The notes under the pieces: model-generated
Seen by the model: the letters and a program-made list of their open reading frames with translations, nothing else
Told to the model about the DNA's origin: nothing
Databases searched by the model: none
Shown: positions 2,353-25,566 of the stretch, piece after piece
Position numbering within the stretch: the first letter of the stretch is position 1
How the letters are laid out: each line of letters opens with the position of its first letter
Assembly: GCA_902794155.1 (NCBI GenBank)
Contig: CADBGN010000007.1
Location: 19,182 to 83,181, forward strand
DNA length: 64,000 nucleotides
From: an uncultured Bacteroidia bacterium
Lineage (GTDB): Bacteria; Bacteroidota; Bacteroidia; Bacteroidales; F082
Direction: 5' to 3'
Made by a program: the position numbers and the translations under genes

Positions 2353-2379
2353 TATAATAGAATTCGACACTCCTTTTTA

Positions 2380-5982: not shown

Positions 5983-6081
5983 CCCATTTTTCTGAACGAA
6001 TAATCCATAGTTCGCCCCGTTTTTCTGAACGAATAATCCATGGTGTGCCCCATTTTTCTGAACGAATAAATCCTTCCTTTG
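5983..6081. repeat. 3 x ~33-bp tandem array (cccatttttctgaacgaataatccat...)
   Basis: Units are 5983-6014, 6015-6047 and 6048-6081. A possible degenerate fourth unit lies at 5950-5982. The last unit merges into leader copy A. Confidence 0.9.
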
Positions 6082-6379
6082 CCGCAAAATCCTCATTTTT
6101 CTTTTGCTTTTCTCGAAAAATCCCTAATTTTGGAGCGTAAAACTAAAAGAAAAGCCTATGGAATAACCCGCCGTAAGGCGCAATAAGAAGCAATACACAT
6201 CACATAATCAGACGATTAGCAATATTCTGTCTTATCGAAAGTTTGGCGATTTAAGATAAAGAAACCAGAATGACGCTGAAAGTTGCACGAATAGCGTGTG
6301 CTTTTCAACATTCGGTTTCTTTAGGTATGCCAAACACCTCGATAAGCGGATGCAAAAGTATCACGCTTTTTTTGTGCTG
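6056..6379 (+). promoter_or_regulatory. conserved noncoding leader, copy A (near-identical to 12838..13164)
   Basis: ~325 nt align to copy B with only scattered substitutions and small indels. No conserved ORF. Contains a -7 box, a GNRA-capped hairpin (6169-6180) and a long hairpin (6241-6335). Confidence 0.7.
6125..6132 (+). promoter_or_regulatory. putative -7 promoter box (taattttg) inside leader copy A
   Basis: TAnnTTTG match with a TTTG-containing T-rich stretch ~20 nt upstream. The identical box occurs in copy B. Confidence 0.5.
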
Positions 6380-6518
6380 GTCCGAAGTGAACAAACATGA
6401 ACCAACAAGAACCTGAAGAGATTGCGGGGAAGTGTGTTTCTTTGCGGTGGGAAAAGCAGAAGTAATAATAATGGAAATAGGAAACAAAATCAATATCAAC
6501 AATTAAAACATTAGGACT

Positions 6519-9166: not shown

Positions 9167-10291
9167 ATGAATCGTAAAATGAAAAAAGTAATCAGTTTAG
9201 CAATTCTTTTGCTTGCTACTCCATGGATATTCGCACAGCAGGCCGATGATTATCGAAAAGCCGCCAATCAAGGTGATGTAGAAGCCCAATCTAATTTGGG
9301 TCGTTGTTATTATTTTGGAGACGGTGTTACGCAGGACTACAAACAAGCGGTTGTTTGGCTAACTAAAGCTGCTAACCAGGGTAACGCTGATGCCCAATAT
9401 TTGTTGGGCGGATGTTATTATTGGGGAAGAGGTGTGAGGCAAGACTACAAACAAGCAGTTTCTTGGTACACCAAGGCTGCAAATCAAGGTGATGCAGACG
9501 CCCAACTTCAATTGGGATGGTGTTATAAAAAAGGTGATGGTGTGAGGCAAGACTACGAGCAAGCTGTTGCTTGGGTTACCAAGGCTGCAAACCAAGGTGA
9601 TGCAGACGCCCAATGTTTTTTGGGCGGATGTTATTATAATGGAACCGGAGTAAAGCAAGACTACAAACAAGCGGTTTCATGGTACAATAAGTCTGCCAAC
9701 CAAGAACTTGCTGATGCCCAATATATGCTAGGCTTATGTTATTATTTTGGTGATGGTGTAAAGCAAGATTCCAAACAAGCGGTTTCATGGTTTACAAAAG
9801 CCGCCAACCAAGGCAATGCTAATGCCCAATATAGTTTAGGTAGATGTTATCAGGCTGGAGACGGTGTGAAGCAAGACAGCAAACAAGCGGTTACTTGGTT
9901 CGTCAAGGCCGCCGACCAGGGTCATGCTGATGCCCAAGGTAATTTGGGATTTTGTTATAATAATGGAGTAGGTGTAAAGCAAGACTACAAACAAGCGGTA
10001 TACTGGTGGACTAAGGCTGCCGACCAAGGGAATGCTGATGCCCAATGTGTTTTGGGTATGTGTTATTATATAGGAAGAGGTGTGAAGCAAGACTACAAAC
10101 AAGCGGTTTCATGGTATACCAAAGCCGCCAACCAAGGGAATGCTGAGGCCCAATATGGTTTGGGCGGATGTTACTATAATGGAGATGGTGTGAAGCAAGA
10201 CTACAAACAAGCGGTTTATTGGTGGACCAAGGCGGCAAATCAAGGACACCATGAAGCCTTGGAATGGTTGAAAGAAATGGGAGAACGTTGA
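9167..10291 (+). CDS. secreted Sel1-like (SLR/TPR) repeat protein, ~9 repeats
   Basis: Signal peptide. The 36-aa units (AANQGxAxAQxxLGxCYxxGxGVxQDYKQAVxWxxK) repeat at a 108-bp period. Confidence 0.9.
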   Translation: MNRKMKKVISLAILLLATPWIFAQQADDYRKAANQGDVEAQSNLGRCYYFGDGVTQDYKQAVVWLTKAANQGNADAQYLLGGCYYWGRGVRQDYKQAVSWYTKAANQGDADAQLQLGWCYKKGDGVRQDYEQAVAWVTKAANQGDADAQCFLGGCYYNGTGVKQDYKQAVSWYNKSANQELADAQYMLGLCYYFGDGVKQDSKQAVSWFTKAANQGNANAQYSLGRCYQAGDGVKQDSKQAVTWFVKAADQGHADAQGNLGFCYNNGVGVKQDYKQAVYWWTKAADQGNADAQCVLGMCYYIGRGVKQDYKQAVSWYTKAANQGNAEAQYGLGGCYYNGDGVKQDYKQAVYWWTKAANQGHHEALEWLKEMGER

Positions 10292-10483
10292 AATAACAAT
10301 AAATAGAAAAGAGACTAAACAGTCTTGAATTCTCTCTTCAATTCAATTCGTATTATCCGAAGCATTGGTTTTGTCAACCATTACACTTCAAAAAATTACT
10401 ACTACTTCTGGATTCCCGAGAAGCGATTGCGTGCTTCTGTTGTTTATAAAAGGATAATGAAAAGAGGATAAAAGTGAGTTATT

Positions 10484-10729
10484 ATGCCCAACACCGCCCA
10501 AATAGAATCCACCAAGCAAAAGCTTGAAGAAACCAAAAAGACCCTCAAGGAACTGCAGGAAAAGAAGACCGCCATCACTGATGCCGCCAAGCTGAAAGCC
10601 GTCAACAAGCAAATCAATGCCCTGCAAGCAGAAATCGGGAAGCTGAAAAGCGACATCCGTCTTTATGCAAGCTTAAATAGAGACGCCATCCGCGATTATC
10701 ATGAGATGGTCTTAGGAGATTTGGATTGA
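10484..10729 (+). CDS. small coiled-coil protein (81 aa)
   Basis: Heptad-rich ORF. Its 3' portion recurs as DNA fragments at 12271-12375, 21265-21319 and 21543-21617. Confidence 0.5.
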   Translation: MPNTAQIESTKQKLEETKKTLKELQEKKTAITDAAKLKAVNKQINALQAEIGKLKSDIRLYASLNRDAIRDYHEMVLGDLD

Positions 10730-10792
10730 TAGGAGAACTCAACATTGTTTGGATATTGTGTTCTCGAACGAGCAGACTTAGTCTTTTAGACA
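10625..10792. repeat. ~165-bp junction segment, copy 1 (copy 2 at 12271..12436)
   Basis: Covers the 3' end of the coiled-coil gene, the spacer and the last codons of the convergent ATPase. Aligns to 12271-12436. Confidence 0.8.
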
Positions 10793-12055
10793 GCCGATTG
10801 GAACGACAAAAATACCGTCGGGGCGTTGGTATGCGTATTGCCCGACAGCGGTCAGCACCATCATGAACGAAGGGCTAGGCATCTTAGTCGTGTCTATGGA
10901 GGCAGCAAGCGTCTTGAGCGCATTTACACCTTCTTCTATAAGTTTGTCGCCCCCCAGTTTGACTTCAACCAATGCGTATGTCCCGTTTCTGCGGTGAATT
11001 ACCGTATCGCATTCCAAGCCAGAGCTGTCGCGGTAATGGTAGAGTCTGCCATCGAGAGCTTCTGCGAACACGCGCAGGTCGCGAACGGCAAGGTCTTCGA
11101 AAAACAACCCAAATGAATTAAGGTCGTTAATTAAGTCGCTGGGGCCAAGTCCAAGGGCTGCCGTGCCAATGCTGGGGTCGACGAAATGGCGTGTGTCGCT
11201 GGTCCGGATGGCAGATTTGCTGCGTATATTCGGATTCCATGCCTCCAAGTCCTCAATGACGAACAAGCGTTTCAAAGCCTTGATATAGTCTGCCACGGTG
11301 TCCTCGTCCAATGTAGCCGAATCATTTGAAAGCATGTCGGCCTTGATGGTGGCGTAGGAGACTTGTTGGGCAATGTTGCGAGCATACGAGCGTAAAAGGA
11401 GACGGGCTCGGGTGGGACTGCGTTTCACCCCGTCAACGCGCTGGATGTCATGCTCAGCGACGGCATCGACATAGTCAAAGGCTTGGTCAAGTGCCAAGTC
11501 TCCTTCCAGCAATGTCGCTTGAGGCCAACCGCCACGACAGGTGAGATAAGCCATCTTTTGCAGGTCGAGATTGCAAGATTGCGGTTCAAAGGTCTCTCCG
11601 TCAAACAGTTTTCGGAGACTGACTAGGCCTGAAGACTCTCCCGATTCGAAAATGCTCATCGGCCTCATTTTCAATCGGGTGAAACGCCCTGTGCCACTAT
11701 GTGTGGTCTCATCGGCTTGTGGAAGCACCGATGACCCCGTTAGGATAAACTGAGAGAAGGTTCCTCGACGGTCCACTTCACTGCGAATATTGTCCCATAA
11801 AGGTGGCAAGGTCTGCCATTCGTCGATTAAACGAGGCGTTTCCCCCTGAAGCAAAGTCTTTGGACTTATTTCCAACATGTTTCGACTTTGCTTTAGCACC
11901 TCGCTATCGCCAAGGTCTAGCATACTTTTGGCCTGCTGTTGAGCTGTGGTGGTTTTTCCACACCACTTCGGCCCTTCAATCAGCACAGCCCCTTTACCTG
12001 CCAGCTTGCGGGCAAGAAGCTTGTCGGCAATCCGAGGTTTATATTCTTTTTTCAT
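10778..12055 (-). CDS. AAA ATPase of the AAA_14/DUF4143 type, copy 2 (different subfamily from copy 1)
   Basis: Walker A GPKWCGKTT. The C-terminus carries D...EVK (ECDTVI...LVEVKLGG). Confidence 0.85.
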   Translation of the reverse strand: MKKEYKPRIADKLLARKLAGKGAVLIEGPKWCGKTTTAQQQAKSMLDLGDSEVLKQSRNMLEISPKTLLQGETPRLIDEWQTLPPLWDNIRSEVDRRGTFSQFILTGSSVLPQADETTHSGTGRFTRLKMRPMSIFESGESSGLVSLRKLFDGETFEPQSCNLDLQKMAYLTCRGGWPQATLLEGDLALDQAFDYVDAVAEHDIQRVDGVKRSPTRARLLLRSYARNIAQQVSYATIKADMLSNDSATLDEDTVADYIKALKRLFVIEDLEAWNPNIRSKSAIRTSDTRHFVDPSIGTAALGLGPSDLINDLNSFGLFFEDLAVRDLRVFAEALDGRLYHYRDSSGLECDTVIHRRNGTYALVEVKLGGDKLIEEGVNALKTLAASIDTTKMPSPSFMMVLTAVGQYAYQRPDGIFVVPIGCLKD

Positions 12056-12061
12056 TATTCA

Positions 12062-12137
<76 letters not shown>

Positions 12138-12146
12138 TATTCGCTG

Positions 12147-12154
12147 CAAAATTA
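12147..12154 (-). promoter_or_regulatory. putative -7 promoter box (taattttg, followed by cagcg) for ATPase copy 2
   Basis: The minus strand reads TAATTTTGCAGCG. The box upstream of ATPase copy 1 reads TATATTTGCAGCG. Confidence 0.45.
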
Positions 12155-12190
12155 CTGATTTTATTTTAATTACAAATACACTTCTTAAAT

Positions 12191-12254
12191 TTTCGGTTGT
12201 TTATAGTGAATTTATTCGGTTATTTGTGGTAGATTTATTCGGTTGTTTGTAATC
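12191..12254. repeat. 3 x ~22-bp tandem repeat (atttattcggttgtttgt...)
   Basis: Units are 12191-12209, 12210-12232 and 12233-12254. Confidence 0.7.
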
Positions 12255-12270
12255 AATTGGCCAAGACTAA

Positions 12271-12375
12271 CAGGAAGAAATAGGGAAACTGAAAAGCGAT
12301 ATTCGTCATTATGCAAGCCTGAACAAGGACTCCATCCGGGATTATCATGAGATGGTTTTGGGGGATTTGGAGTGA
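12271..12375 (+). pseudogene. 3' fragment of a coiled-coil gene copy (no start codon)
   Basis: Translates to EEIGKLKSDIRHYASLNKDSIRDYHEMVLGDLE*. An in-frame TAA lies immediately upstream. Homologous to 10625-10729. Confidence 0.65.
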
Positions 12376-12450
12376 TAGGTGAACTCAACATTGTTTGGAT
12401 ATTGCGTTCTCGTACGAGCCGACTTGGTCTTTTAGGAGAATAGCATAACT

Positions 12451-12726
12451 TTATACCTCCGTCAGGAGGAATGCCATATATATTGGCAAGGTCAGCAGGT
12501 TATCGCTTCTGCCAATATTGTAGTCGCCTAATTTGAATGCGCTCGTGACATGATATTTTTCAGGGTGCTTCAAGACGGTGCGCATCGACTTGGCATTGCC
12601 CGTTGTGGCTTTACATTCCACAGGTGTGCATCGTCCTTTATAGCGCATAAGAAAGTCAAGTTCCACACCGCCGTCTTTGTGATAGTAATACAACTTGCGT
12701 CCCATCTTGCCGAAGATGTCGGCCAC
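12451..12726 (-). pseudogene. C-terminal remnant (~90 aa) of a DUF4143-type ATPase
   Basis: Aligns to the last ~90 aa of ATPase copy 1 (ELDFL...PVECK...LPIYM). No ATG and no ATPase domain. An in-frame stop lies just upstream. Confidence 0.65.
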
Positions 12727-12737
12727 AAGGTTCTAAA

Positions 12738-12836
12738 CACATTTTCATACCGAGTTTTTTGTGTTTTACACACATTTTCCACCCGACTTTTGGCGCAAAA
12801 ATTCACATTTTCTGTAAAAACCTGCAAAAAGTGAGG
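12738..12836. repeat. 3 x 33-bp periodic array (cacattttc... at 12738, 12771 and 12804)
   Basis: Exact 33-bp phasing of the cacattttc motif. The array directly abuts leader copy B. Confidence 0.75.
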
Positions 12837-12837
12837 T

Positions 12838-13164
12838 TCTCTGAACGAATAATACCTTCCTCTGCCGCAAAATCCTCATTTTTCTTTTGCTTTTCTCAAA
12901 AAATCCCTAATTTTGGAGCGTAAAACTAAAAGAAAAGCCTATGGAATGACCTGCCGTAAGGCGCAATAAGAAGCAATATAATTCATATAATCAGACGATT
13001 AGCAATATTCTGTCTTATCGAAAGTTTGGCGATTTGAGATAAAGAAACCAGAATGATGCTGAAAGTTGCACGTATAGCGTGTGCTTTTCAACATTCGGTT
13101 TCTTTAGGTATGCCAAACACCTCGATAAGCGGATGCAAAAGTATCACGCTTTTTTTTGTGCTGT
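12838..13164 (+). promoter_or_regulatory. conserved noncoding leader, copy B (near-identical to 6056..6379)
   Basis: Same -7 box (12908-12915), GNRA hairpin and long hairpin (13024-13118) as copy A. The T-run is T8 here versus T7 in copy A. Confidence 0.7.
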
Positions 13165-13269
13165 CAAGAAACGACTCGATATGAACCAAAATGAACCTGA
13201 AAAGATTGTGCGGAAGTGCGTTTCTTTGCAGGTAGAAAATAAGACAAGAACAACTAAAACAATACGAAT

Positions 13270-13530
13270 ATGAGTGTCGAATACTACAAAAAGAAATTGG
13301 TGGATTTGCGCGCCGATGTGGCCAAAGAGAAAGAAGCCAAGAAAAGAGACAACGAGAGGTATGCAGATTTAATCAAAAATGCCTCGTCACCTTCGAGCAA
13401 GGCTTCTTACAAAAAGAGTAAAATCGATCATGCTGCTTCACACGATCGCAGGATTGAAAGCCTGAAACGGGAAATAGAGCGTTGCAAAGAGACTTTGGCG
13501 CGCGAAAGGGAAAGAGCAAAGAGAAAATAG
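13270..13530 (+). CDS. small Lys/Glu-rich coiled-coil protein (86 aa)
   Basis: First ORF after leader copy B. Charged heptad-like sequence. Confidence 0.5.
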   Translation: MSVEYYKKKLVDLRADVAKEKEAKKRDNERYADLIKNASSPSSKASYKKSKIDHAASHDRRIESLKREIERCKETLARERERAKRK

Positions 13531-13560
13531 AATTATTGTTTCACTTAAATACTTAAAATC

Positions 13561-13929
13561 ATGGGACTGATTAACAATCTGAAAGACAAATTCAACAAGG
13601 CGGAATTCACTGTGGCTCCGCAGAAGAAACTCAAAACCCTCTCCAAGGAGTTCTTGGATGCGTTTGACCTGCAATTGGTGTTCTACAAAGGCAACATCAT
13701 CGCCGAAGGCGACTTGACCTTGGCTGCCTTGAACAAGAAAACCACTAAAGATGTTAACGCCAAAGCAGATGGCATCAAAATCAAAGGCAGCACAAAAGTT
13801 GGCGATGCCGAAAAGATGTTTGACACCAACTTTGGCGTAAAGGTGCAAATCAAGGACAAGGCTGGAAAAATTTGCGTTCCTAATGAGATAACCATTGGGC
13901 AGGCCGCAAGAGGAGAGTATGAACGGTAA
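13561..13929 (+). CDS. small protein with two copies of a ~45-aa module (122 aa)
   Basis: Internal duplication (KKLKTLSKEFLDAFDLQLVFY and GSTKVGDAEKMFDTNFGVKVQI). Same module as in 13946.., 15569.. and 18873... Confidence 0.6.
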   Translation: MGLINNLKDKFNKAEFTVAPQKKLKTLSKEFLDAFDLQLVFYKGNIIAEGDLTLAALNKKTTKDVNAKADGIKIKGSTKVGDAEKMFDTNFGVKVQIKDKAGKICVPNEITIGQAARGEYER

Positions 13930-13945
13930 TTTAAACAATAAAGTT

Positions 13946-14479
13946 ATGGCAACAACAACCAAAAAGACAACAACAAAGACTGCAGCAAAGAAGACAACGA
14001 CGGCCAAACCCGCCGCCAAGAAGACCACCACAACGGCCAAGCCTGCAGCAAAACCCGCTACGAAGAAAGCCGCTCCTTTGAAGACTGCCGTTGAGCTGTC
14101 AGTGACAGGCAACAAAAAGATTGGCACCCTAATGAAGGAGTTCAACAAGCAGTTCCCATTTCTTCGCCTGAAGATATGCTATAGTTATGCCCGTCAAGCT
14201 GTGGCTAAAGGAGAGAGCATCAGCGGTATTGATCCCGATAAGACCCTTGCTTCGGTACGCCGTGCCGACTCGGGTGGTGACATCTCCATCAGCGGCAACA
14301 AGAAAATCAAGTCGTTGGAGAAGGAATTCGATACCGTCTTTGGCCTCTATGTCCAAGTATGCTACACAGAGAAGGATGGCCACCGTTACTATACAAGTGG
14401 TTCCGCCGACGAGATGACTCTTGCCGCCTTCAACAAGAAGTGCGAAGCCGACGGCTGCCAAAAAGGCTTGTGGAAATGA
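13946..14479 (+). CDS. protein with a histone-H1-like Lys/Thr/Ala/Pro-rich tail plus two copies of the ~45-aa module
   Basis: N-terminal tail TTKKTTTKTAAKKTTTAKPAAKK.... Modules GNKKIGTLMKEFNKQFPFLRLKI and GNKKIKSLEKEFDTVFGLYVQV. Confidence 0.6.
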   Translation: MATTTKKTTTKTAAKKTTTAKPAAKKTTTTAKPAAKPATKKAAPLKTAVELSVTGNKKIGTLMKEFNKQFPFLRLKICYSYARQAVAKGESISGIDPDKTLASVRRADSGGDISISGNKKIKSLEKEFDTVFGLYVQVCYTEKDGHRYYTSGSADEMTLAAFNKKCEADGCQKGLWK

Positions 14480-15135
14480 CGTTAATCGAACAAGCAAAAG
14501 CCGATATACAGCAATACCTCGACCGTGAGGACGGGGAACTGCTGTTCAATGAGCGCGATTTGCAGATGCATTTGGCGTTGTATCTCATCGGGAGTGGACA
14601 CTACGATGATGTGGATGTAGAATATTATGTGCCTTTCGAGGAGTTGGATAACTACATCTGGAAGAACGAACTAAAGTTAGATATCCTATTACGGAAGGGG
14701 AACGAGTTCCTGCCCGTGGAGTTGAAATACAAGACCAAAAAGCATAGCAAACAATTGACACGATTCGATGAATGTCTTAACCGACAGGTTGACGTGTTGA
14801 AGAATCAGGATGCACGTGATCTTGGAATGTACGATTTCTGGAAGGACGTTCGTCGTGTTGAGTTGGTACGTAACCGTTTTAACGCTGTGAAACATGGCCT
14901 AGCAGTGTTCGTCACCAACGACAAGCGGTATCTTAACCCTAGCCGTGTGTCTTCAAACAACTGCCTCTTCAGTATGGAAGAAGGTCTTCATGGTCCCGTC
15001 AAACACTGGCAACAGTCAGAAAGTACCTGTGCGAAGACGCATCCAGACTTCGACCTCGAACATGAATATACAATTCACTGGGGACAAAATCTTTATGAGG
15101 ACATTGAGTTTAATTATTGTATTGTAACAATCTGA
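14476..15135 (+). CDS. PD-(D/E)xK nuclease-like protein (motif-level call)
   Basis: ATGA start/stop overlap with the upstream ORF. The sequence ...LDILL(x9)VELKYK gives D69...E82-x-K84. Confidence 0.5.
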   Translation: MTLIEQAKADIQQYLDREDGELLFNERDLQMHLALYLIGSGHYDDVDVEYYVPFEELDNYIWKNELKLDILLRKGNEFLPVELKYKTKKHSKQLTRFDECLNRQVDVLKNQDARDLGMYDFWKDVRRVELVRNRFNAVKHGLAVFVTNDKRYLNPSRVSSNNCLFSMEEGLHGPVKHWQQSESTCAKTHPDFDLEHEYTIHWGQNLYEDIEFNYCIVTI

Positions 15136-15146
15136 ATAACAAATCT

Positions 15147-15533
15147 ATGAATATCAAGAAATCAGCCGAGAGTGGAGAATACATGATTGGCGTAAAAGAG
15201 AACAACAGTATTGAGGTGTATCGCATTTATGACAACACCAAAGAGGCTTTACGAGAGATTGCCAAGCAAGAAAACTATGAATATGACCCCAACTGGAATA
15301 CTCGCCAATTTGGAGCCAAACTCTGCAAACAATTCGGCGACGGCCAGCAGGCAACAGTGGGTTGCTATACCGTCTACATCCGCAGCACCGAGACCGTTGA
15401 GGTCTATCGCACATACGATAACACCAAAGGTGCCTTGCGCGAAATTGCAGAGAAACTTGGCTTCGAGGTGGATCCAAAGTGGAACACCCAGCAGTTTGGC
15501 AGCAAGCTGGTGGACTTTATCAATGGAAAATGA
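15147..15533 (+). CDS. small protein with two copies of a ~40-aa HTH-like module
   Basis: YRIYDNTKEALREIAKQENYEYDPNWNTRQFGAKL and YRTYDNTKGALREIAEKLGFEVDPKWNTQQFGSKL. The same module ends KAP NTPase 1. Confidence 0.6.
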   Translation: MNIKKSAESGEYMIGVKENNSIEVYRIYDNTKEALREIAKQENYEYDPNWNTRQFGAKLCKQFGDGQQATVGCYTVYIRSTETVEVYRTYDNTKGALREIAEKLGFEVDPKWNTQQFGSKLVDFINGK

Positions 15534-15568
15534 ACCCTAATCTATTAACCCATTAAATTCAAATTATT

Positions 15569-15883
15569 ATGGCAGAAATTGCATTAAAAGGAAACATGAA
15601 GGTGAAAACCCTCAAGGCAGATTTCAAGAAAGCTTTTGGCTCAACGCTCCGCGTCTATTTGAGCCCCACCTGCAAAGGTCGCATGGCCGATGACGATGCA
15701 ACCCTCGCTTCTATCCGCGCCGAAGGTGCCAAAGGTGGCGAACTAAAAGTGGTAGGTAACATGCAGGTTGGCAACTTCGAGAAGAAGATTGTTGAACTGT
15801 ATGGCATTGGCGTCCAGGTGGCCAACGCCGACGACAGCAAACTGGCCGATAACAGTGTCACTCTCGTGGCCGCAGGAAAGTAA
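15569..15883 (+). CDS. two-module small protein (104 aa), paralog of 18873..19175
   Basis: GNMKVKTLKADFKKAFGSTLRVY and GNMQVGNFEKKIVELYGIGVQV. High similarity to 18873..19175. Confidence 0.65.
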   Translation: MAEIALKGNMKVKTLKADFKKAFGSTLRVYLSPTCKGRMADDDATLASIRAEGAKGGELKVVGNMQVGNFEKKIVELYGIGVQVANADDSKLADNSVTLVAAGK

Positions 15884-15932
15884 ATGTTTGAAACGCGAGC
15901 GCGAAAGAGCCAAGAAAAAATAACCAAGTGAC

Positions 15933-17519
15933 ATGAGATCAAGTATAATCGACATCCCTCGCCGACACGACCAGGCAGACCTTTTTGGCATCAAAGTCTA
16001 TCAAGAGGCTTTGATAGAGTATATTAAGTTAACGGATACTCCTATCACTATAGCTTTGCAGGGCGAATGGGGTAGTGGCAAGACTTCGTTGATGAACCAA
16101 CTGAAGTATAAGTTGTGCGATGAAGACGGTGCTCCCTATTTTTCTGTGTGGATAAACACCTGGCAGCATTCGCTGATGAAGAATCCGAATCAGGCTATTA
16201 TGAGCATCTTGGAAGGATGCATAAGTCAGATAGGTTCATTGAATCCAGACAAACAGAAGTGGGAGGAAAGCAAAAAGGTGATAGGTGGCGTGTTCAAAAG
16301 CATTGCTAAAGTGGGAGCTAAAGTTGCCGTAAGCACTCTGGGTGCAGATAGCGAGAGCGTCGACGATTTGTTTGGTGGTGGAGGCGAAACTTCAGATATA
16401 TCGAAGTTGAAGGATGAGATAGGCAAGATGATAGAGGCGGCACTAAATGTGAATCCGAACAAGATCGGATTCACATTCTATATTGATGACCTTGACCGAA
16501 TCGACCCGCCGGTGGCTGTCGAGATACTTGAACTATTGAAGAATATCTTCGACTTGGAGAAGTGCGTTTTCATATTGGCTATAGACTACGATGTAGTCAT
16601 CAAGGGTTTACGTTCCAAATTTGGTGAACTGACAGATAAGAATGAGCGTGAGTTCCGTGCTTTCTTCGACAAAATCATACAACTTCCATTCTCGATGCCG
16701 GTGGCTTCCTACAATGTTGACACATTCTTGGTGGATGCATTGAAGCGAATAGGAGTTTTCACGGATGAGGAACTGGCGAAGGAAGGCACAGCGGAATTAC
16801 TTTCAGAAATCGCCCAACTGTCGGTAGGTTGCAATCCAAGATCGTTGAAGCGACTGATGAATACCTTGTCGCTGATTTCCATAATCAATAACAAACTGAA
16901 AAACGAAGAGGAAACCTTGAAGCAGAACAAGGTGCTGAACTTTGCTTTGGTTTGTATGCAGATTGCTTACCCGTTCATTTACAATCAGCTTACAGAGGCA
17001 CCAGACTTCAAACAGTGGAATGATAGTATTGCGGCGAAGTTGAAACTCAAGCCGCTGACTGAGGGCGAAAAGCAGAGTCTTGATGCCGCAGAAGAATTTG
17101 ACGAAGATTGGGAGAAAGTGCTATTCCGCATGTGCCAGAAAGAGATATACTTAAGTAACAGGGCTTTTCAAGTATCGCTGCTGATGAACAAAATAGCAGA
17201 AATAGTGAATGATGATGCAAATCTTGGCGGCATTGTTGAATCAACCCTTGAACTCTCTGCCGTAACCAATCTGAAAGCCTTTGACACACCCAAGAAGTTA
17301 CAAGGCAAAAAATCGGCCATTGTCGGGGACTTCTTTGTTGAGATCATGACCGACAATAAGGTTGTTGTCAAGAAAGGTGGTGCTGCATGTGACAACACCA
17401 AAGGTGCTTTGCGCGAGATTGCCGAGAAGGTGGGGTTTATTGTCGATCCCAAATGGAATACCCAACAACTTGGCAATAAATTGGTAAACTATATCAATCA
17501 GAAAACCGTAAACGTATAA
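15933..17519 (+). CDS. KAP-family P-loop NTPase 1 (no TM insert) with a C-terminal HTH-like module
   Basis: Walker A GEWGSGKTS and Walker B FYIDDLDR, with the overall KAP layout. C-terminal module DNTKGALREIAEKVGFIVDPKWNTQQLGNKL. Confidence 0.85.
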   Translation: MRSSIIDIPRRHDQADLFGIKVYQEALIEYIKLTDTPITIALQGEWGSGKTSLMNQLKYKLCDEDGAPYFSVWINTWQHSLMKNPNQAIMSILEGCISQIGSLNPDKQKWEESKKVIGGVFKSIAKVGAKVAVSTLGADSESVDDLFGGGGETSDISKLKDEIGKMIEAALNVNPNKIGFTFYIDDLDRIDPPVAVEILELLKNIFDLEKCVFILAIDYDVVIKGLRSKFGELTDKNEREFRAFFDKIIQLPFSMPVASYNVDTFLVDALKRIGVFTDEELAKEGTAELLSEIAQLSVGCNPRSLKRLMNTLSLISIINNKLKNEEETLKQNKVLNFALVCMQIAYPFIYNQLTEAPDFKQWNDSIAAKLKLKPLTEGEKQSLDAAEEFDEDWEKVLFRMCQKEIYLSNRAFQVSLLMNKIAEIVNDDANLGGIVESTLELSAVTNLKAFDTPKKLQGKKSAIVGDFFVEIMTDNKVVVKKGGAACDNTKGALREIAEKVGFIVDPKWNTQQLGNKLVNYINQKTVNV

Positions 17520-17532
17520 AACCACTTTTTTT

Positions 17533-17826
17533 ATGGCAATCTTTCTTTGGCTTTTCCAGTTTATCAGTCCGATTACTTTCATTCTCGGAGGACTGTATCT
17601 TTTGGAAGCCCCGTCGCCGTTGGCACTTGTATTGGGTGGTGTGGCGGCAGTCCTCGGCCTCGTTACAGGTATTGTCGGATGGGGCGACACTGTGCCACCC
17701 CGTTGGTTTTGGATAAAGAGCAGTATGGAGTTGGCCGACAGTCGGTTTATGACAGCCCTCGGATATGCCATCCAGTTCTTTTTCATTCCTCCCTGCGTGA
17801 TAGGATTGATTGAATACTTCGGTTAA
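17533..17826 (+). CDS. small membrane protein (97 aa)
   Basis: Hydrophobic helices. GGVAAVLGLVTGIVGWG resembles VGAILAVLGFIVGWSAW in 20976..21170. Confidence 0.55.
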   Translation: MAIFLWLFQFISPITFILGGLYLLEAPSPLALVLGGVAAVLGLVTGIVGWGDTVPPRWFWIKSSMELADSRFMTALGYAIQFFFIPPCVIGLIEYFG

Positions 17827-17834
17827 AATCGATT

Positions 17835-17886
17835 ATGGGCGTAGAATACTACAGAAATTGGGCAAGCCGCAAGAGGCGAGTATGAA
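17835..17886 (+). other. deletion scar fusing the start of a 13270-like ORF to the end of a 13561-like ORF
   Basis: 17835-17861 matches 13270-13300 and 17857-17886 matches 13894-13923. The junction lies at a shared attgg. Confidence 0.7.
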
Positions 17887-17888
17887 AA

Positions 17889-18812
17889 ATGACAGGAAAA
17901 GAGTTAAATACAACATCTTTGATAGAGTTGCTCAGTGGCAAAGACAACGGTTTCGACCAAGCCATGGTTGCTGGCAAGGTGCAACTGATGCGCCTGAAAA
18001 ACATGGCCATCACCATCGAAGGAAAGATGCACAGGGACAAGAACCTGTTCGACCTATTCCTCGATCATCAGGATGATGGCTTGTTTGAGGATTACGTCAG
18101 GGAGCACACGCCTGAAAATGCAAAACTGCTGATGCAAGCGGCATACGTTGTTGTCTTTGTCGTCGACGGAAAGTATTCCCGTTTCGTTGGTGTATACAGG
18201 ATTCTCGGCCTGGACAAGAAGATCACCGTTCCGACCGATGACAAAAAGTCGTTCAGGAATAGAGTCTTTGTGAAAGTGGCTGAGCTAAAAGTTTTCAAGG
18301 AATATAGTGGTCGTGTGCTCGTCGATTGGGGTGGCGTGGCGGCCCTTCGTTGGATGCAATGGTTTAGAGGCGACAAGAAAGTGCTTCGCATTGACGAAGG
18401 CATCATTCGCATGATGATTCCTTTCACCTCCTATAATGACGTACTGCTTTCTTTCAAGGAGTTGAAGAACCTCATCGAGACCGACAATGTGGAGTGGCGC
18501 GACAAACTGAAGGCGGTGAATGGCATCTATGGCATAGCCGACCAAAGCAACGGCAAGCTCTATGTTGGATCAGCCTACGGCGACGAAGGCATTTGGGGCC
18601 GATGGAAAGTGTATGTCGAAACCAACGGACATGGCAACAACGACTTGCTGGTTGAACTGCTAAGCAAGAATAAAGACTACGCTTGGGACCATTTCCAATG
18701 GTTCATCCTCGAAACCTTCCCTTTGGACGTGACTGATGATTACGCTGTCCATAGGGAGAGCCTGTATAAAGAAAAACTTTGTACACGAGTGTTTGGGTAC
18801 AATAAGAATTAG
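17889..18812 (+). CDS. GIY-YIG nuclease-domain protein, paralog of 6519..7451
   Basis: NGIYGIADQSNGKLYVGSAYG... at the C-terminus. Full-length alignment to copy 1. Confidence 0.8.
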   Translation: MTGKELNTTSLIELLSGKDNGFDQAMVAGKVQLMRLKNMAITIEGKMHRDKNLFDLFLDHQDDGLFEDYVREHTPENAKLLMQAAYVVVFVVDGKYSRFVGVYRILGLDKKITVPTDDKKSFRNRVFVKVAELKVFKEYSGRVLVDWGGVAALRWMQWFRGDKKVLRIDEGIIRMMIPFTSYNDVLLSFKELKNLIETDNVEWRDKLKAVNGIYGIADQSNGKLYVGSAYGDEGIWGRWKVYVETNGHGNNDLLVELLSKNKDYAWDHFQWFILETFPLDVTDDYAVHRESLYKEKLCTRVFGYNKN

Positions 18813-18872
18813 ATAAGGAGCATCGCCGAAAATCCTATAAAGAGTAGGCAAACATTAAACAATTTATTTATT

Positions 18873-19175
18873 ATGGCAGATTTCAATATTGACGGCCGCA
18901 TGAAGGTCAAGACTTTGAAAGCCCAGTTTAAGGAGGCTTTCGGTGCAACATTGAGAGTTTACAAAGGTCCCGGCTTCGCTGACGACAACGCTACTTTGGC
19001 ATCCATCCGTGCCGAAGGCGCCAAAGGCGGCGAGGTGAAAGTGGTCGGCAACATGAAGGTCGGCAACTTCGAGGACAAGATCAAGGAAGTGTTCGGCATT
19101 AAGGTGCAGGTCGCCACAAAGGACGACTCAGCCCTTGCCGACAACGGTCTCACCTTGAGCGCTGCGGGAAAATAA
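18873..19175 (+). CDS. two-module small protein (100 aa), paralog of 15569..15883
   Basis: GRMKVKTLKAQFKEAFGATLRVY and GNMKVGNFEDKIKEVFGIKVQV. Confidence 0.65.
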   Translation: MADFNIDGRMKVKTLKAQFKEAFGATLRVYKGPGFADDNATLASIRAEGAKGGEVKVVGNMKVGNFEDKIKEVFGIKVQVATKDDSALADNGLTLSAAGK

Positions 19176-19235
19176 CCCATTTTTTCTATGAGGAGGGCGG
19201 GCGTAGTGTCAGCCCTCCCAATTTATGTTAAGCCT

Positions 19236-20949
19236 ATGAAATCCAGTATCATCGATGTGCCTCGCAGACACGACCAAGAAGACCTTTTCGGCATCAAAGT
19301 GTATCAGGATGCTCTCATCAAATACATCAAACTAACCGATACGCCCATCACTATCGCATTGCAGGGCGAGTGGGGCAGCGGCAAGACCTCGTTGATGAAC
19401 CTGCTTCGCTGGAACCTCTGCGAGGTGGACGACGCACCCTATTTTCCCGTGTGGATCAACACTTGGCAGTATTCATTGATGAAAACACCGCAACAGGCTA
19501 TCATCAGCATCTTGGAGGGCATCGTCAACCAAATTGGAGCGCTCAATCCCAACGCCCAAAGGAATGAGAGCATGAAGAAGATAGGCGGACTATTCAAGAA
19601 AATGGCCACGGTGGGTGCTAAGGTGGCAGCTGGCGTGGCTGGCATTGATGGTGGTGTGGTTGACGACCTTGTCGGTAGTGAGGAGGCACAATCCGACATC
19701 AACCAACTTAAGGAAGAAATCGGCAAACTCATTAATGAGGCTTTGGCCAATGACCCCTCAAAAATCGGCTTCACTTTTTATATTGATGACCTCGATCGTA
19801 TCGACCCACCTGTGGCGGTGGAAATTCTCGAACTTTTGAAGAATATCTTTGACTTGGAGAAGTGTGTTTTCATTCTTGCCATCGACTATGACGTGGTCAT
19901 CAAAGGCTTGAAGCCAAAATTCGGCGAACTGACTGAAAAAGAACGAGCGCGAATTCCGCTCTTTCTTCGACAAAATCATCCAACTGCCGTTCTCCATGCC
20001 CGTGGCTTCCTATAACGTGGACACGTTTTTAGTCGATGCCTTGAGCAAAATCGAATTCTTCTCCAAGAATGAGTTGACTGATGCGCAGTTGGCTGAAACT
20101 TTGTCGGAAGTGGCGCGACTCTCGGTGGGCAGCAATCCCCGCTCACTGAAACGCCTGACCAATACGCTTTCGCTCATTTCCATTATCAACGCGGAGAAGA
20201 GTGCCGAAGCGGAAAACAATACCCTGAACAAGACCTTGAATTTCTCGTTGGTCTGTATGCAGATTGCCTATCCCTACATTTACAACCAACTGACTGAGGA
20301 ACCCGATTTCAAGCAATGGAACGAGCGCATTGCCTCGAAACTGAAGCTGCGCCACTTGACCCCAGAAGAAAAGGAGAGTTTAGATGCCACTGAGGAGTTT
20401 GACGAGGATTGGGAGAAAGTGGTTTTCCGCATGTGCCAAAAAGAGACTTACCTGAGTAACAGGGCTTTTCAGGTTTCATTATTGTTGTCGAAAATCGCCG
20501 AAATCGTGAATGATGACAATCATTTGGGTGAAATCGTCGAAGCGACCATTGCCCTTTCCGCTGTTACCAATTTGAAGGCTTTTGATGGGCCTTTGCTGGT
20601 GAAGAAATCAAGAGCGTTGGAAGTGAACACTTTCAACGGTATGGAAATCAAGGGTAAAGGCCGTCTGTGCCATGCTATTGTTAAAGACTATGTGGAAAAG
20701 CATCCTGAGGTGACTTTGTCAGAACTGAAATCCGTTTTCAATGTACCCAAGTGCGAGGTCGTCGAGTCGCTTGAAGTGGCTATGACCATTAAAGATAGTG
20801 CTGGCAAGATTGGGGGAGACTATTATATCAAGGAAAACGACCAAATCAAGACCAAAGAAGGAAAGGTTGTAGTTTGGAGTTACTGGCCGGAACGCTTTTA
20901 TGCGCCGTTTATAGAGAAGGTTCAGAAATTAGGAATCAGAATTGGTTAA
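19236..20949 (+). pseudogene. KAP-family P-loop NTPase 2, reading frame broken once (frameshift or homopolymer sequencing error)
   Basis: ORFs 19188..20015 and 19996..20949 both align to KAP 1. Removing one A from the A5 run at 19936-19940 restores ...TEKNEREFRSFFDKIIQLPFSMPVASYNV.... Confidence 0.75.
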
Positions 20950-20975
20950 AGCAAAATGTTTGTAACAGCCTTATT

Positions 20976-21170
20976 ATGGCTTTTTCAGAAGATTTCGCCG
21001 ATACTTACCGTCCTTGGGCACTAGTGCTTTTCAGTGGTTGCTTTGAAGGATATGAATTCATTGTCGGAGCGATTTTGGCGGTGCTTGGCTTCATTGTCGG
21101 TTGGTCAGCATGGGAATCAGGAAGTGCCGCCACGCTGGTTTTGGGTGAAGTCGAAACTCGCATTGTTTGA
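20976..21170 (+). CDS. small membrane protein (64 aa)
   Basis: ATG at 20976 within track ORF 20874..21170. Hydrophobic core similar to 17533..17826. Confidence 0.5.
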   Translation: MAFSEDFADTYRPWALVLFSGCFEGYEFIVGAILAVLGFIVGWSAWESGSAATLVLGEVETRIV

Positions 21171-21264
21171 TAATCGAGTCTGGAATGCATTCAGTTACGC
21201 TATTTAGTTTTCTTGATACCGTTTGCCATCACGGGAATCATTACAATTGTTGATATGTTGTGAT

Positions 21265-21319
21265 GAACAAGGACTCCATCCGCGATTATCATGAGATGGT
21301 TTTGGGGGATTTGGAGTGA
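21265..21319 (+). pseudogene. 3'-terminal fragment of a coiled-coil gene copy
   Basis: Near-identical to 12321-12375 (NKDSIRDYHEMVLGDLE*). Confidence 0.6.
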
Positions 21320-23406: not shown

Positions 23407-25566
23407 ATGAAAAAATTACACTTTATTATTCTGGCGGCGATGCTCGCCTTTGTAGGCTGTGCAAAAAAGCCTCAAGATGTCAATGTGGAACTGGTCACCG
23501 TTGAAAACGAGGTGAAGACCATTGGCTCGACCCAAGCGTATTTTGAATGTGAGTTCGAATACCTCAACGAAATCACCAAGGCTTTGTTGGTCTATTGCGA
23601 AGACGACCAATTGAAGTATGCCCAGACCTCAAAACTTGAATATGTTGACGGCAAGTGGCTGACTCAAATGAATTACCTTGAGAAGAAGACCAAGTACTAT
23701 TACAGGTATGAGTTCTATAACGGTTATAACCTGATGTGGACCGAAATCTTCAATTTCACCACTACGGATCAGCAAGATAAGCCGAGCGTCGAAACTGTTG
23801 AAGCCACCAACATCACGATGAATTCGGCTACGGTGGAAGGCAACGTGACCAACGATGGCGGATCTCCGGTCACGGAGCGCGGTATCTGTTACAGCATTTA
23901 TGAGAATCCTACTCTGTCTGATTCCGTACGTCTGGCTGGCACGGGCATAGGACGCTATTACTGTGAAATGACTAACTTAACCAATGCAACCACCTATTAT
24001 ATCCGTGCTTTTGCCACCAATAGCGAAGGGACGAGTTTTGGAGATGTGATTACCGTTCGTACTGTGGAGCATCCCATGCTCCCGACGGTTACCACGGATG
24101 AGGTTTCCGATATCACCCTCAACACGGCAGTTTGTGGCGGCAATGTGCTCAGCGACGGCTTTGCAGAGATTACGGAAAGAGGCATCTGCTATGCTACGCA
24201 CGAAGAACCGACTGTCTTTGATTACAAGGTGCCAGGTGGCGAAGGCTTGGGTCTGTTCCAATGTCGTATGTCTGGTTTGGAGACCCTCACCACTTATTAT
24301 GTACGTGCATACGCCAGAAACAGTGAAGGCTATGCTTATGGCAATGAGGTGACCTTCGTTACGGCCGATGAAACCTTCCTGCCAGAAGTGATTACTCATG
24401 AGGTGACAGACTTCAACCATTTCTATGCCATCGGTGGTGGTGAGGTGGTTTCCAATGGTGGTTTAGACATTATTGAACGTGGTATCTGTTGGAATACTTC
24501 GCCTACTCCTACCACTACGGACAATAAGCTGACCGCTGGAACAGGCATGGGCGAGTTTGAATGCCGTATCACCTACCTGTTTGGCAACACCACCTATTAT
24601 GTACGCGCCTTTGCTGCCAATGAAGCGGGCATGAAGTATGGCAATGAGGTGACCTTTACGACCCCGCCTCATCCGAATACGGCTCCTGAAGGTTCCATCC
24701 CTTCATTGTTCTCCATCAGCGATAACCAACAAGTGTTCTTCTCACAAGGCAACTTGCAGTATCGTGCTTCATCCAACTCTTGGCGTTTTGCCGAACACCA
24801 ATATGATTTTGTAGGAGGTTCAAGTGATGATTATTGGTCAGGAGGAGAATTTGGCAATGTTTATGAAAACGGAGTGAAATGCAGTAACAATGAGATTTCG
24901 CAAACTTATTCAGGTTGGATCGACCTGTTTGGTTGGGCTACTTCGGGCTGGAACAACAACAACCATTACTATCATCCATACGATTACGAATCGACAGGCT
25001 GGACTGTGGATGGTTATGGCTATGGTTATTGGGATGGCCAGTATGCTAATTATTCAATGGCAGGTGACTATGTCAATATGGACTGGGGCGTATATAATCC
25101 TATTACTAATGGTGGTAACGAGGCAGGCAGATGGAGAACACTGAATTGCAGTGAATGGAATTATGTATTGCAATACCGTCACGATGCCACCTATAAACGT
25201 TCAAGCGCCACAGTGAATGGCGTCGAAGGTTACATCCTTCTACCTGATGCTTGGATTCTTCCTTCGGGTCTCACATTCACAGCAAACGCACCTGATTTCG
25301 TGACCAATAATTACGATCTGGCTAAATGGGCTATCATGGAGAATGCGGGTGCCGTGTTCTTCCCACGGGCAGGGAGACGTTATTACGGAGACGAAGGTGT
25401 CAGATACGATTCATATTATGATTATTACTGGTCTTCATCGCATGATGCGTCGGCATCTTACTCTACCAACGATAATGCCTATTGCGCCAGTTTATCTTAT
25501 TTCTCAGGGTACTATGGTATGTCACGCAATAGCGGACTTCCCGTTCGTCTCGTGCAGAATTACTAA
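23407..25566 (+). CDS. surface lipoprotein with three to four ~95-aa tandem domains plus a conserved C-terminal domain
   Basis: Lipobox AFVGC. ERGICY/ERGICW-containing repeats span ~23782-24667. The C-terminal FSQGNLQY...WRFAEHQYD...GWIDLFGWATSG...VRLVQ domain is shared with 25639..26481. Confidence 0.75.
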   Translation: MKKLHFIILAAMLAFVGCAKKPQDVNVELVTVENEVKTIGSTQAYFECEFEYLNEITKALLVYCEDDQLKYAQTSKLEYVDGKWLTQMNYLEKKTKYYYRYEFYNGYNLMWTEIFNFTTTDQQDKPSVETVEATNITMNSATVEGNVTNDGGSPVTERGICYSIYENPTLSDSVRLAGTGIGRYYCEMTNLTNATTYYIRAFATNSEGTSFGDVITVRTVEHPMLPTVTTDEVSDITLNTAVCGGNVLSDGFAEITERGICYATHEEPTVFDYKVPGGEGLGLFQCRMSGLETLTTYYVRAYARNSEGYAYGNEVTFVTADETFLPEVITHEVTDFNHFYAIGGGEVVSNGGLDIIERGICWNTSPTPTTTDNKLTAGTGMGEFECRITYLFGNTTYYVRAFAANEAGMKYGNEVTFTTPPHPNTAPEGSIPSLFSISDNQQVFFSQGNLQYRASSNSWRFAEHQYDFVGGSSDDYWSGGEFGNVYENGVKCSNNEISQTYSGWIDLFGWATSGWNNNNHYYHPYDYESTGWTVDGYGYGYWDGQYANYSMAGDYVNMDWGVYNPITNGGNEAGRWRTLNCSEWNYVLQYRHDATYKRSSATVNGVEGYILLPDAWILPSGLTFTANAPDFVTNNYDLAKWAIMENAGAVFFPRAGRRYYGDEGVRYDSYYDYYWSSSHDASASYSTNDNAYCASLSYFSGYYGMSRNSGLPVRLVQNY

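Follow-up and report, generated by a model that had tools for sequence, protein, structure and literature searches.

KAP-type P-loop nucleoside triphosphatases (NTPases) fused to variable C-terminal regions have been found to protect against phage, as reported for EF_KAP and three gut-metagenome proteins, and protection by EF_KAP requires both the Walker B motif and the C-terminal region (PMC13552941). Uzume, on the other side of the comparison made here, is listed as a single-gene GIY-YIG defence system (bioRxiv 10.1101/2024.10.26.620412). In multicellular bacteria, effector-associated domains (EADs) have been described in connection with vWA-MoxR, STAND or GTPase cores (Kaur, Burroughs, Iyer, Aravind 2020; PMC7159879). 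This work concerns a locus that resembles each of these in part. It is located in a stretch of 64,000 nucleotides (nt) of contig CADBGN010000007.1 (GenBank assembly GCA_902794155.1, positions 19,182 to 83,181, forward strand) from an uncultured bacterium of the order Bacteroidales. The whole stretch is referred to as the window, and positions are counted from its first letter. An original prediction had described two paralogous blocks, A and B, each encoding a protein of about 100 amino acids (aa; the sm family), a KAP NTPase and a small membrane protein (the TM family), as an undescribed system with exchangeable nucleases. The present analysis leads, with modest confidence, to a different reading, in which the span 13270-21207 would be the main part of a hypervariable single-strand gene array of gut and rumen Bacteroidales.

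All genes from 13270 to ~21250 are on the plus strand with short spacers between them, as judged from the list of open reading frames (ORFs) of the window, and the GC content across the array is 0.44-0.48 as compared to 0.54 at the infB end of the window. For comparison, 64 species-level genome loci and several metagenome contigs were taken (designated by L-numbers), with flanks of at most 10 kb, so that many arrays are incomplete, and about 20 families were mapped onto these loci by tblastn and jackhmmer in a small database. All 381 pool-family genes detected, in 67 loci, are on the strand of the KAP gene and occur in many different orders. The same pool was encountered in Prevotella, Alloprevotella, Alistipes, Rikenellaceae, Muribaculaceae and Paludibacteraceae. 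Its members are cc86, p122, sm, m138, PDx, TM and UzuA (described below), OmpA-like and TerB proteins, an ion channel accompanied by a 241-aa protein, an ATP-grasp enzyme accompanied by an 80-aa ORF, lipoproteins, a PD-T4-3-type GIY-YIG protein and a PDC-M09A-like protein. There are arrays that have no KAP gene (L062-L069) and KAP genes that have no pool gene nearby (L010, L041, L043). The content also differs among strains, given that L071 and L077 possess four extra genes between UzuA and the sm gene of block B, and L076 and L079 different genes after the TM gene of block A.

The position of KAP within these arrays bears directly on the proposal of a three-gene system. Among the 47 species-level loci whose KAP reaches 65% identity or more, 40 contain any pool gene and 22 a member of any of three nuclease families, while a nuclease adjoins KAP in 3. 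An sm gene is directly upstream of KAP in five of these 47 loci, a TM gene directly downstream in four, and the full sm-KAP-TM trio is present in four. The trio is limited to one sub-clade (blocks A and B of the window, L006, L013, L034 and L037), most members of which share the leader sequence described below. Synteny of the trio in other genomes, on which the original prediction depended, was thus largely lost on inspection, and a weaker form of it survives: within this single sub-clade, both KAP lineages retain the order sm-KAP-TM. The idea of effector swapping around a conserved NTPase core fared no better, given how seldom a nuclease is adjacent and that PDx and UzuA shuffle independently of KAP. 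Since both nucleases keep partners of their own, also where there is no KAP, the "nuclease in the equivalent slot" of each block corresponds to cassette shuffling in a larger array.

The reading as a variable defence island is based on the mixture of named phage-defence genes and undescribed small domains in the same array. Known or candidate defence genes in or beside the arrays are UzuA, PD-T4-3, PDC-M09A, KAP (similar to PDC-S20 and PifA) and the flanking PDC-S01. The clearest case is the nuclease gene of block B. Its GIY-YIG assignment was upheld, as residues 211-305 match the catalytic domain of I-TevI (1ln0) with an E value of 2e-4 and the GIYGI, LYVGS, Arg, Glu and Asn signatures are present, with the Pfam GIY-YIG match being sub-threshold (E 0.012). 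The accompanying statement that the locus matches no named system had to be given up, because the ORF at 17889-18812 aligns with the PADLOC UzuA model at full length (5.5e-66, profile positions 16-278 of 278) and hence corresponds to Uzume. A second UzuA gene is located at 6519-7451 (3.8e-67, profile positions 14-278). In six of seven loci an sm gene follows UzuA, whether or not KAP comes next, and we know of no description of such a pairing with a small gene for Uzume. The spacer between the two genes in the window contains the RNA motif DUF805b (40.8 bits against a gathering threshold of 35.6, E 1.8e-8), which is also found about 25 nt ahead of the ATG of array genes, mostly those for small proteins, in at least 10 other loci, including L004, L009, L013, L018, L034 and L037. 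The motif could be a processing or translation signal.

The second nuclease candidate, PDx, precedes block A, and its usual contexts are p122-PDx or PDx-m138-sm, also in arrays devoid of KAP (L062, L067, L068). Of the PD-(D/E)xK motif that had been proposed for this ORF, the residues stood up to comparison: K84 is invariant across 33 homologues, D69 and E82 nearly so, and in the AlphaFold model (pLDDT 92.8) these residues are placed on the predicted strands 66-74 and 77-86. The leading Foldseek matches in the PDB are all of this fold (R2 endonuclease, AddAB, AF1548, Hjc, HincII, Cas4), with probabilities of up to 0.99 and a best E value of only 0.009, so that the fold matches themselves are non-significant. 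The match to Pfam PDDEXK_4 is below threshold (17.7 bits, cutoff 22.3, E 0.0036), and a PDB profile search with PDx returned nothing relevant. A nuclease fold is likely for PDx. The features of the array are collected in Table 1.

Table 1. Features of the array in the window (HMM, hidden Markov model)
Feature	Position	Strand	Basis or remark
Conserved non-coding leader, copy 2	12837-13239	+	91% identity to copy 1
cc86, 86-aa Lys/Glu-rich coiled-coil protein, usual first array gene	13270-13530	+	ORF
p122, 122 aa, two diverged ~45-aa modules	13561-13929	+	module HMM
p177 (p177/p194), Thr/Lys/Ala-rich histone-H1-like tail, then ~45-aa module copies	13946-14479	+	
PDx, 219 aa, predicted PD-(D/E)xK fold	14476-15135	+	
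m138, 128 aa, two copies of the KAP-A C-terminal module	15147-15533	+	
smA, 104 aa, two ~45-aa modules	15569-15883	+	
Putative cc86 3' remnant between smA and KAP-A	15884-15932	+	suggestive
KAP-A, intact 528-aa soluble KAP P-loop NTPase	15933-17519	+	
TM-A, 97-aa membrane protein	17533-17826	+	
Junction scar, cc86 start fused to p122 end	17830-17886	+	direct repeats
UzuA-type GIY-YIG gene, 307 aa	17889-18812	+	
DUF805b RNA motif (Rfam RF02914), UzuA-smB spacer	18815-18850	+	
smB, 100-aa smA paralogue	18873-19175	+	
KAP-B, frameshifted KAP NTPase, CdB C-terminus	19236-20949	+	
TM-B pseudogene	20956-21255	+	three-frame translation against L013
Array right-end repeat, 'NKDSIRDYHEMVLGDLE*'	21264-21319	+	

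KAP-A matches Pfam family PF07693 with 123.9 bits (cutoff 20, E 1e-35) over profile positions 2-289 of 293, and the homologues of L001 and L015 are likewise above the threshold of this family. The translations of both KAP-A and KAP-B contain the Walker A motif GEWGSGKTS and the Walker B motif FYIDDLDR. A transmembrane insert between Walker A and Walker B is common in the KAP family but not obligatory. Neither KAP-A nor KAP-B has a hydrophobic insert, and the highest Kyte-Doolittle mean over 19 residues of KAP-A is 1.52, at a site past Walker B. The NTPase bodies of the two proteins share 75.3% identity over 454 aligned residues, and at the DNA level the small-protein and NTPase parts of both blocks are 70-79% identical over ~2 kb, which is far beyond chance. 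Synonymous sites are saturated (pS 0.81) at a dN of 0.19, which points to an old divergence under purifying selection. The C-termini are unrelated (20% identity): that of KAP-A is a module of the m138 type (~aa 458-524), that of KAP-B a domain termed CdB, and Pfam scans detected no Pfam domain in either. Several elements of the original prediction were therefore confirmed, namely, the KAP family assignment with both Walker motifs and no insert, the identity of about three quarters with many synonymous differences, and the presence of different C-terminal domains, so that the domain swap is real.

The best PADLOC matches of KAP-A are PDC-S20 (7e-31), PifA (7e-29) and QatA (9e-19), all restricted to the NTPase region, and sequence searches of the PDB with KAP-A, CdB and m138 yielded nothing usable. 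Among the 8000 best word-sharing candidates that were scored, at least 4941 protein clusters match KAP at E <=1e-5, and nearly all named matches are from metagenome-assembled genomes (MAGs) of Bacteroidales. Between genera, KAP is 70-75% identical where the kinase that flanks the array is 35-47% identical (L008, L016, L031). This far better conservation of KAP suggests that array cassettes have been exchanged between lineages. No pool gene is located near the KAP homologues of greater distance (41-50% identity; Victivallales, Lentisphaerae, Mailhella).

The sm proteins have the predicted construction of two ~45-aa modules, which the module HMM recognizes in smA with per-domain E values of 1e-25 and 7e-25 and in smB with ~1e-25 each; both proteins are 73% identical. 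The AlphaFold model of smA (pLDDT 89) consists of two beta-alpha-beta units. None of 1294 smA homologues has a Pfam domain, and matches to known folds are weak, with di-ubiquitin and ISG15 in the PDB (E 0.03-1) and uncharacterised jumbo-phage proteins (E 0.008) being the nearest. Pfam ubiquitin-like matches exist for 2 of 100 sm-fusion proteins, in which the matching region was not visible. The sm protein is possibly a tandem beta-grasp-like mini-domain, and no fold is claimed here. The same double module forms the N-terminal domain of hundreds of proteins of 200-640 aa (819 representative clusters at 50% identity). Their C-termini include BspA-type leucine-rich repeats (LRR), DUF4116, FGE-sulfatase, OmpA, TerB and Endonuclea_NS_2, and ~80% are without a Pfam match. 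More diverged modules are found in p122 (whole-protein E 6.8e-6), near-identical versions of which follow cc86 in L004 and L070-L079, and in p177 (E 2.4e-7), which also has a low-complexity match to the Hc2-like NCBIfam family and is present as a 177-aa gene call in L070.

Two further domains are exchanged among array proteins. The module of m138 recurs at the C-terminus of KAP-A, as evident from the DNA repeat 15412-15524/17386-17498 (75% identity) and from tblastn and jackhmmer. CdB is the usual C-terminal domain of the KAP family, as it was identified in 38-39 KAPs, including homologues of 46-47% identity outside arrays, and is replaced by the m138 module in KAP-A and in the KAPs of L004, L006 and L010. 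In all 30 OmpA-like array proteins it also makes up the cytoplasmic N-terminal part (hhalign probability 97.6%, E 3e-12), where either sm or m138 may be placed ahead of it, interchangeably, and an iterative search over the loci found it on LRR proteins and as a stand-alone protein. The cc86 family is present in 38 loci, on the array strand every time. It is without Pfam, PHROG or PADLOC assignment (borderline PADLOC E 0.004), and significant matches in Pfam, NCBIfam, PHROG or PADLOC are likewise lacking for p122, m138, sm, TM and CdB (CdB borderline, PADLOC E 0.0025). As for the possible cc86 remnant ahead of KAP-A, the ORF 15768-15923 ends in '..KRERERAKKK*', like the C-terminus of cc86, and short cc86-like matches are located 13-24 nt ahead of KAP in L006, L021, L025, L034 and L037. 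The TM family was found in 18 loci, with different gene neighbours in L001 and L004. TM-A is hydrophobic (maximal Kyte-Doolittle mean 2.5) and contains the conserved motif PPRWFW.

A non-coding leader of ~400 nt is present twice in the window, namely, ahead of the first UzuA gene (6054-6454) and ahead of cc86 (Table 1), and recurs with 86-93% identity in L006 and L013, where it is again located ahead of the first gene of the array. Each copy holds the pattern TTTG-N18-TAATTTTG (at 12886-12915 in copy 2), which fits the -33/-7 promoter consensus reportedly established for Bacteroidetes by Bayley et al. 2000. There are 6 matches to this pattern in the 64 kb as compared to 1.6 expected, two of which are in the leader copies, and a consensus scan found no plus-strand match within 12916-21300 and, ahead of the array, none on this strand but that of the leader. 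Transcription from the leader promoter, as located by this pattern, would imply a 5' untranslated region of ~345 nt. A scan for sigma-70 promoters and intrinsic terminators gave no more than expected for shuffled sequence and is uninformative for Bacteroidetes. An invertible promoter was considered and rejected, since the sole candidate arms (12868-12887/21357-21376) are 8.4 kb apart and 80% complementary, and are treated as chance. At the other end, the right-end repeat is 98% identical to 12320-12375 and has an 86% copy at 10630-10754. The sequence '..NKDSIRDYHEMVLGDLE*' closes arrays at 10630-10754, 12260-12400 and 21264-21319, brackets a minus-strand ATPase gene, and is also present after the membrane gene in L006 and L013.

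How both blocks came together can be traced with two relatives. KAP-A is 96% identical to the KAP of L006 and 87% to that of L001, whereas KAP-B shares 86-90% of its residues with the KAPs of L013, L034 and L037 and 72% with KAP-A. The closest genome, L006 (rumen MAG RUG13515), has the order kinase-leader-cc86-p122-...-PDx-m138-sm-KAP-TM followed by the right-end repeat, and contains neither UzuA nor block B. In L013 the order is cc86-p122-UzuA-sm-KAP(CdB)-TM, and this locus aligns to 17857-21319 of the window at 80% DNA identity. The 57 nt between TM-A and UzuA consist of the first ~8 codons of cc86 and the last ~10 codons of p122, as seen from the repeats 13265-13292/17830-17857 (82%) and 13894-13923/17857-17886 (93%). 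The KAP affinities, the gene orders of L006 and L013 and the cc86/p122 scar together identify block B as an L013-type array behind an L006-type array. It would have been joined behind block A and its first two genes deleted down to the 57-nt scar. A recent tandem duplication of A into B was rejected, as each KAP is nearer to KAPs of other species, synonymous sites are saturated and a scar is present at the junction.

Block B is decaying. The paired arrangement of the original prediction holds for gene order in both blocks, but not for the intactness of block B, in which KAP-B is split into two ORFs (19188-20015 and 19996-20949) by an additional A at 19936-19940 (A5 here, A4 in L070). Three further assemblies of this locus (L070, L073, L078) have an intact 586-aa allele, and the split allele is found again in L072 and L074, and this recurrence argues for a genuine inactivating polymorphism. 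A sequencing error or a programmed frameshift is unlikely, as two other assemblies have A5 and three have A4, and TM-B is broken as well. With 4-5 A, the run is not long enough for efficient phase variation. Both the window and L070 carry a TM-B gene that is broken in at least three frames, while the orthologue of L013 is intact (~101 aa). Of the membrane proteins predicted to have 64-97 aa, the 97-aa TM-A was thus retained, whereas the 64-aa product of block B (20976-21170) turned out to be one fragment of the TM-B pseudogene.

The surroundings of the array bore out the expectation of a variable, defence-rich neighbourhood, with two UzuA genes, two PDC-S01-type ATPases and a kinase matching the PD-T4-6 model. 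This membrane-anchored Ser/Thr kinase (2605-3771, plus strand) and a divergent 204-aa gene (1756-2370, minus strand) precede the array, and do so in ~12 species-level loci of several genera. The kinase domain matches the PADLOC models PD-T4-6, mad6 and Stk2 (1.7e-40); the kinase could regulate the array or could merely mark a conserved hotspot. Leader copy 1 heads a shorter array, composed of the first UzuA gene (6519-7451), a gene of a 455-aa lipoprotein family (7751-9118) and a Sel1-repeat protein (9167-10291). Before and between the arrays, the AAA_14/DUF4143 ATPases at 3807-5159 and 10778-12055 (both minus strand) match the PADLOC candidate PDC-S01 (4.8e-115 and 8e-61), and 12451-12726 (minus strand) is a 91-aa C-terminal remnant of a third ATPase of this type. 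A run of 73 T (12064-12136), which reads as poly-A on the coding strand, is placed between a minus-strand promoter match of the Bacteroidetes type (12147-12176) and the ATG of the second ATPase (12055). Its length in independent assemblies of the locus is 73, 50, at least 47 and 5, so that the homopolymer is truly hypervariable or else an artefact of assembly. Downstream of the array, a 719-aa repeated-domain protein (23407-25566) has a 35% identical homologue downstream of the L034 array, and its C-terminal region, inspected by eye, is presumably similar to the Fibrobacter succinogenes major paralogous domain. Among the relatives, L001 encodes a full-length PD-T4-3-type GIY-YIG protein (9795-10532, 7e-46) and a PDC-M09A-like protein (10706-12969, 1e-28), followed by a 268-aa partner. 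In some arrays, an MvdD-like ATP-grasp enzyme is preceded by an 80-aa ORF (L001 5841-7094; L015, L019), a combination that looks like a graspetide-type maturation pair.

The annotated neighbours in the examined loci showed no gene for an integrase or transposase and no phage gene. A phage or prophage origin found no support, since there are no IMG/VR viral-contig relatives, phage records reach only 22-28% identity and the small families have no PHROG match. Integron-like attC cassettes were not supported either, as the spacers are mostly 12-60 nt long, a repeat search detected no recurrent inverted repeats and there is no integrase among the annotated neighbours. Such a locus type was not found described in the literature on Bacteroidales cassette arrays, PDC-S20 or DUF805b.

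On balance, it appears rather probable that this is a hypervariable Bacteroidales defence array of largely autonomous modules and not two three-gene systems. Such an array would begin at the leader with its Bacteroidetes promoter, often downstream of the Ser/Thr kinase, and would draw on a shared cassette pool that recombines within and between species. UzuA may act alone as a nuclease against invading DNA. Other cassettes that would act on their own are PD-T4-3 and PDC-M09 in relatives, as well as the KAPs, together with the PDC-S20/PifA-like proteins. By analogy with EF_KAP, KAP may be an NTP-driven switch that needs Walker B and its C-terminal region, and the C-terminal domain (CdB, or m138 in KAP-A), being without a catalytic signature, could be its sensing or docking part. 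The remaining cassettes (sm, cc86, p122, m138, TM, PDx) would be separate or loosely coupled elements expressed from the common leader and not fixed partners of KAP.

A number of observations weigh against this reading. The defence role of the array genes is predicted from their sequences, and most pool families (sm, cc86, p122, m138, CdB, TM, the ion channel with its 241-aa protein, lipoproteins) match no defence model, so that the label "defence" for the whole array depends on a minority of its members. The similarity of KAP to PDC-S20 and PifA covers only the NTPase region (profile positions 19-360 of 464 and 7-315 of 720), and PDC-S20 is itself a candidate. The retention of the order sm-KAP-TM in both KAP lineages of one sub-clade, with spacers of 13-65 nt, fits some functional coupling, and the presence of CdB on KAPs and on all 30 OmpA-like N-termini argues against full autonomy of KAP. 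The notion of a single promoter comes from a consensus scan.

Part of these observations would be accommodated by one integrated, modular Bacteroidales immune network, an alternative that is considered unlikely. Here sm, m138 and CdB would be putative homotypic adaptors or shared sensor heads linking sensors (LRR, FGE-sulfatase-like, DUF4116), the KAP switch and effectors (OmpA-like proteins, ion channel, TM, PDx, UzuA), possibly under the control of the kinase. The OmpA-like proteins would be anchored to peptidoglycan, and the cassettes would be in constant exchange between species behind a single leader and promoter. The distribution of CdB over KAP C-termini, OmpA-like N-termini, LRR proteins and stand-alone proteins is in line with this idea, as are the interchangeability of sm and m138 ahead of CdB, the duplication of the KAP-A C-terminal module two genes upstream, the sm double module at the N-terminus of hundreds of longer proteins, the single leader and strand, and the kinase in ~12 species-level loci. 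It also fits the effector-associated domain logic of NTPase conflict systems (PMC7159879). The correspondence that such adaptors call for is however weak. A partner gene with the same domain is present near KAP-A (the m138 gene) and near the KAPs of L001, L007 and L034, but is absent for KAP-B, L013 and L016, where there is no other CdB within 10 kb, and for L004, whose KAP has the m138 domain and no m138 gene alongside. A consistent match between the C-terminal domain type of KAP and a same-domain partner gene was rejected for this reason. Moreover, CdB-bearing KAPs also occur alone (L041, L043, L051, L052), and a machine of fixed stoichiometry would not allow for such variable array content.

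A discrete system in each block, with sm, the KAP sensor and the membrane protein as core and the upstream nuclease as swappable effector, is quite improbable. The same order is observed twice in the window and in L006, L013, L034 and L037 with short spacers, UzuA-sm-KAP-TM recurs in L013 and L034, and a membrane gene is directly downstream in both KAP lineages. Apart from the rarity of the trio and of an adjacent nuclease among the 47 species-level loci, sm and TM are distant from KAP in L001 and L004, and PDx travels with p122, m138 and sm even in arrays that have no KAP. UzuA is a named stand-alone system, and its copy at 6519-7451 adjoins neither KAP nor sm. Two genes separate the nuclease of block A from KAP, and TM-B is a pseudogene in all assemblies of the species while KAP-B is intact in some of them. 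It is very improbable that the array is non-antiviral and serves envelope or ion stress or inter-bacterial competition and immunity, with nuclease and NTPase as passengers of the hotspot, because the arrays repeatedly contain antiphage families, known or candidate, that are independent of one another, no toxin, type VI secretion system or recombinase genes were seen among the annotated neighbours, and the small proteins have no signal peptides in their sequences, even though a good part of the members belongs to the membrane or envelope (OmpA-like, ion channel, TerB, lipoproteins), the ATP-grasp enzyme has a possible peptide substrate in the upstream 80-aa ORF, most families have no defence-model match, and the acquired interbacterial defence gene clusters of Bacteroidales are likewise small same-strand gene arrays.

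Read as a hypervariable defence array, the locus is of relevance for several reasons. Gut and rumen Bacteroidales are thinly covered by current defence catalogues, most array families are unannotated and the locus type is abundant. If it is a defence hotspot, it would provide a compact set of antiphage candidates for a major gut phylum, which can be found by the leader in the closest relatives or, in roughly a dozen species-level genomes, by the kinase beside it. The mode of action of KAP NTPases at membranes is a long-standing question that dates back to the definition of the family. If the small domains are adaptors, the array would show a soluble KAP NTPase coupling to membrane partners. 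In addition, what appeared to be a new system of three genes resolves into single-gene systems, known or candidate, and shuffled accessory cassettes.

Clear differences emerge when the locus is compared with the systems described so far. Tmn (Gao et al. 2020) is similar in being a defence P-loop NTPase of the KAP/YobI neighbourhood, but membership was rejected in view of the absence of a PADLOC Tmn match at E <=0.1 and of a transmembrane segment after Walker A. Qat was rejected because the NCBIfam QatA model gives KAP-A 70.8 bits at a cutoff of 600 and QatB, QatC and QatD are missing from the array. PDC-S20 and PifA are the best defence-model matches of KAP-A and have the same Walker A and B signatures in a single large NTPase; the C-termini found here are of the m138 or CdB type, however, and PifA of the F plasmid has 720 aa, of which only the positions given above are covered, so that full PifA membership was rejected. 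The class of EF_KAP has in common with KAP-A and KAP-B a conserved KAP body and a variable C-terminus devoid of known domains, but EF_KAP has two transmembrane helices and a C-terminal region of 322 aa, whereas the KAPs of the window are soluble and carry modules of 70-130 aa shared with array genes (PMC13552941). Proteins of the EF_KAP class also adjoin small serine recombinases (PMC13552941), none of which was seen at the KAPs of the window. Both UzuA genes match UzuA of Uzume end to end, including the GIY-YIG catalytic domain, and differ from it in context, as array UzuA is followed by an sm gene (6/7 loci), often with a DUF805b motif in the spacer.

The resemblance to EADs consists in a small, non-catalytic domain at the end of an NTPase that reappears in neighbouring genes in other fusions, within variable architectures (PMC7159879). 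In contrast, sm, m138 and CdB match no described family in Pfam scans, their pairing with an adjacent gene is irregular, and homotypic binding is putative. Defence islands are similar in their clustered unrelated defence genes, lower GC content and turnover at the strain level, and different from this locus with its strict single strand, spacers of tens of nt, one leader with a promoter, cassettes reshuffled across genera, and no integrase or mobile genes seen. Defence islands, UzuA in Uzume and KAPs in the KAP family are already known; what is new are the three unannotated swappable domains sm, m138 and CdB, together with the leader-headed, single-strand cassette array in which they are found.

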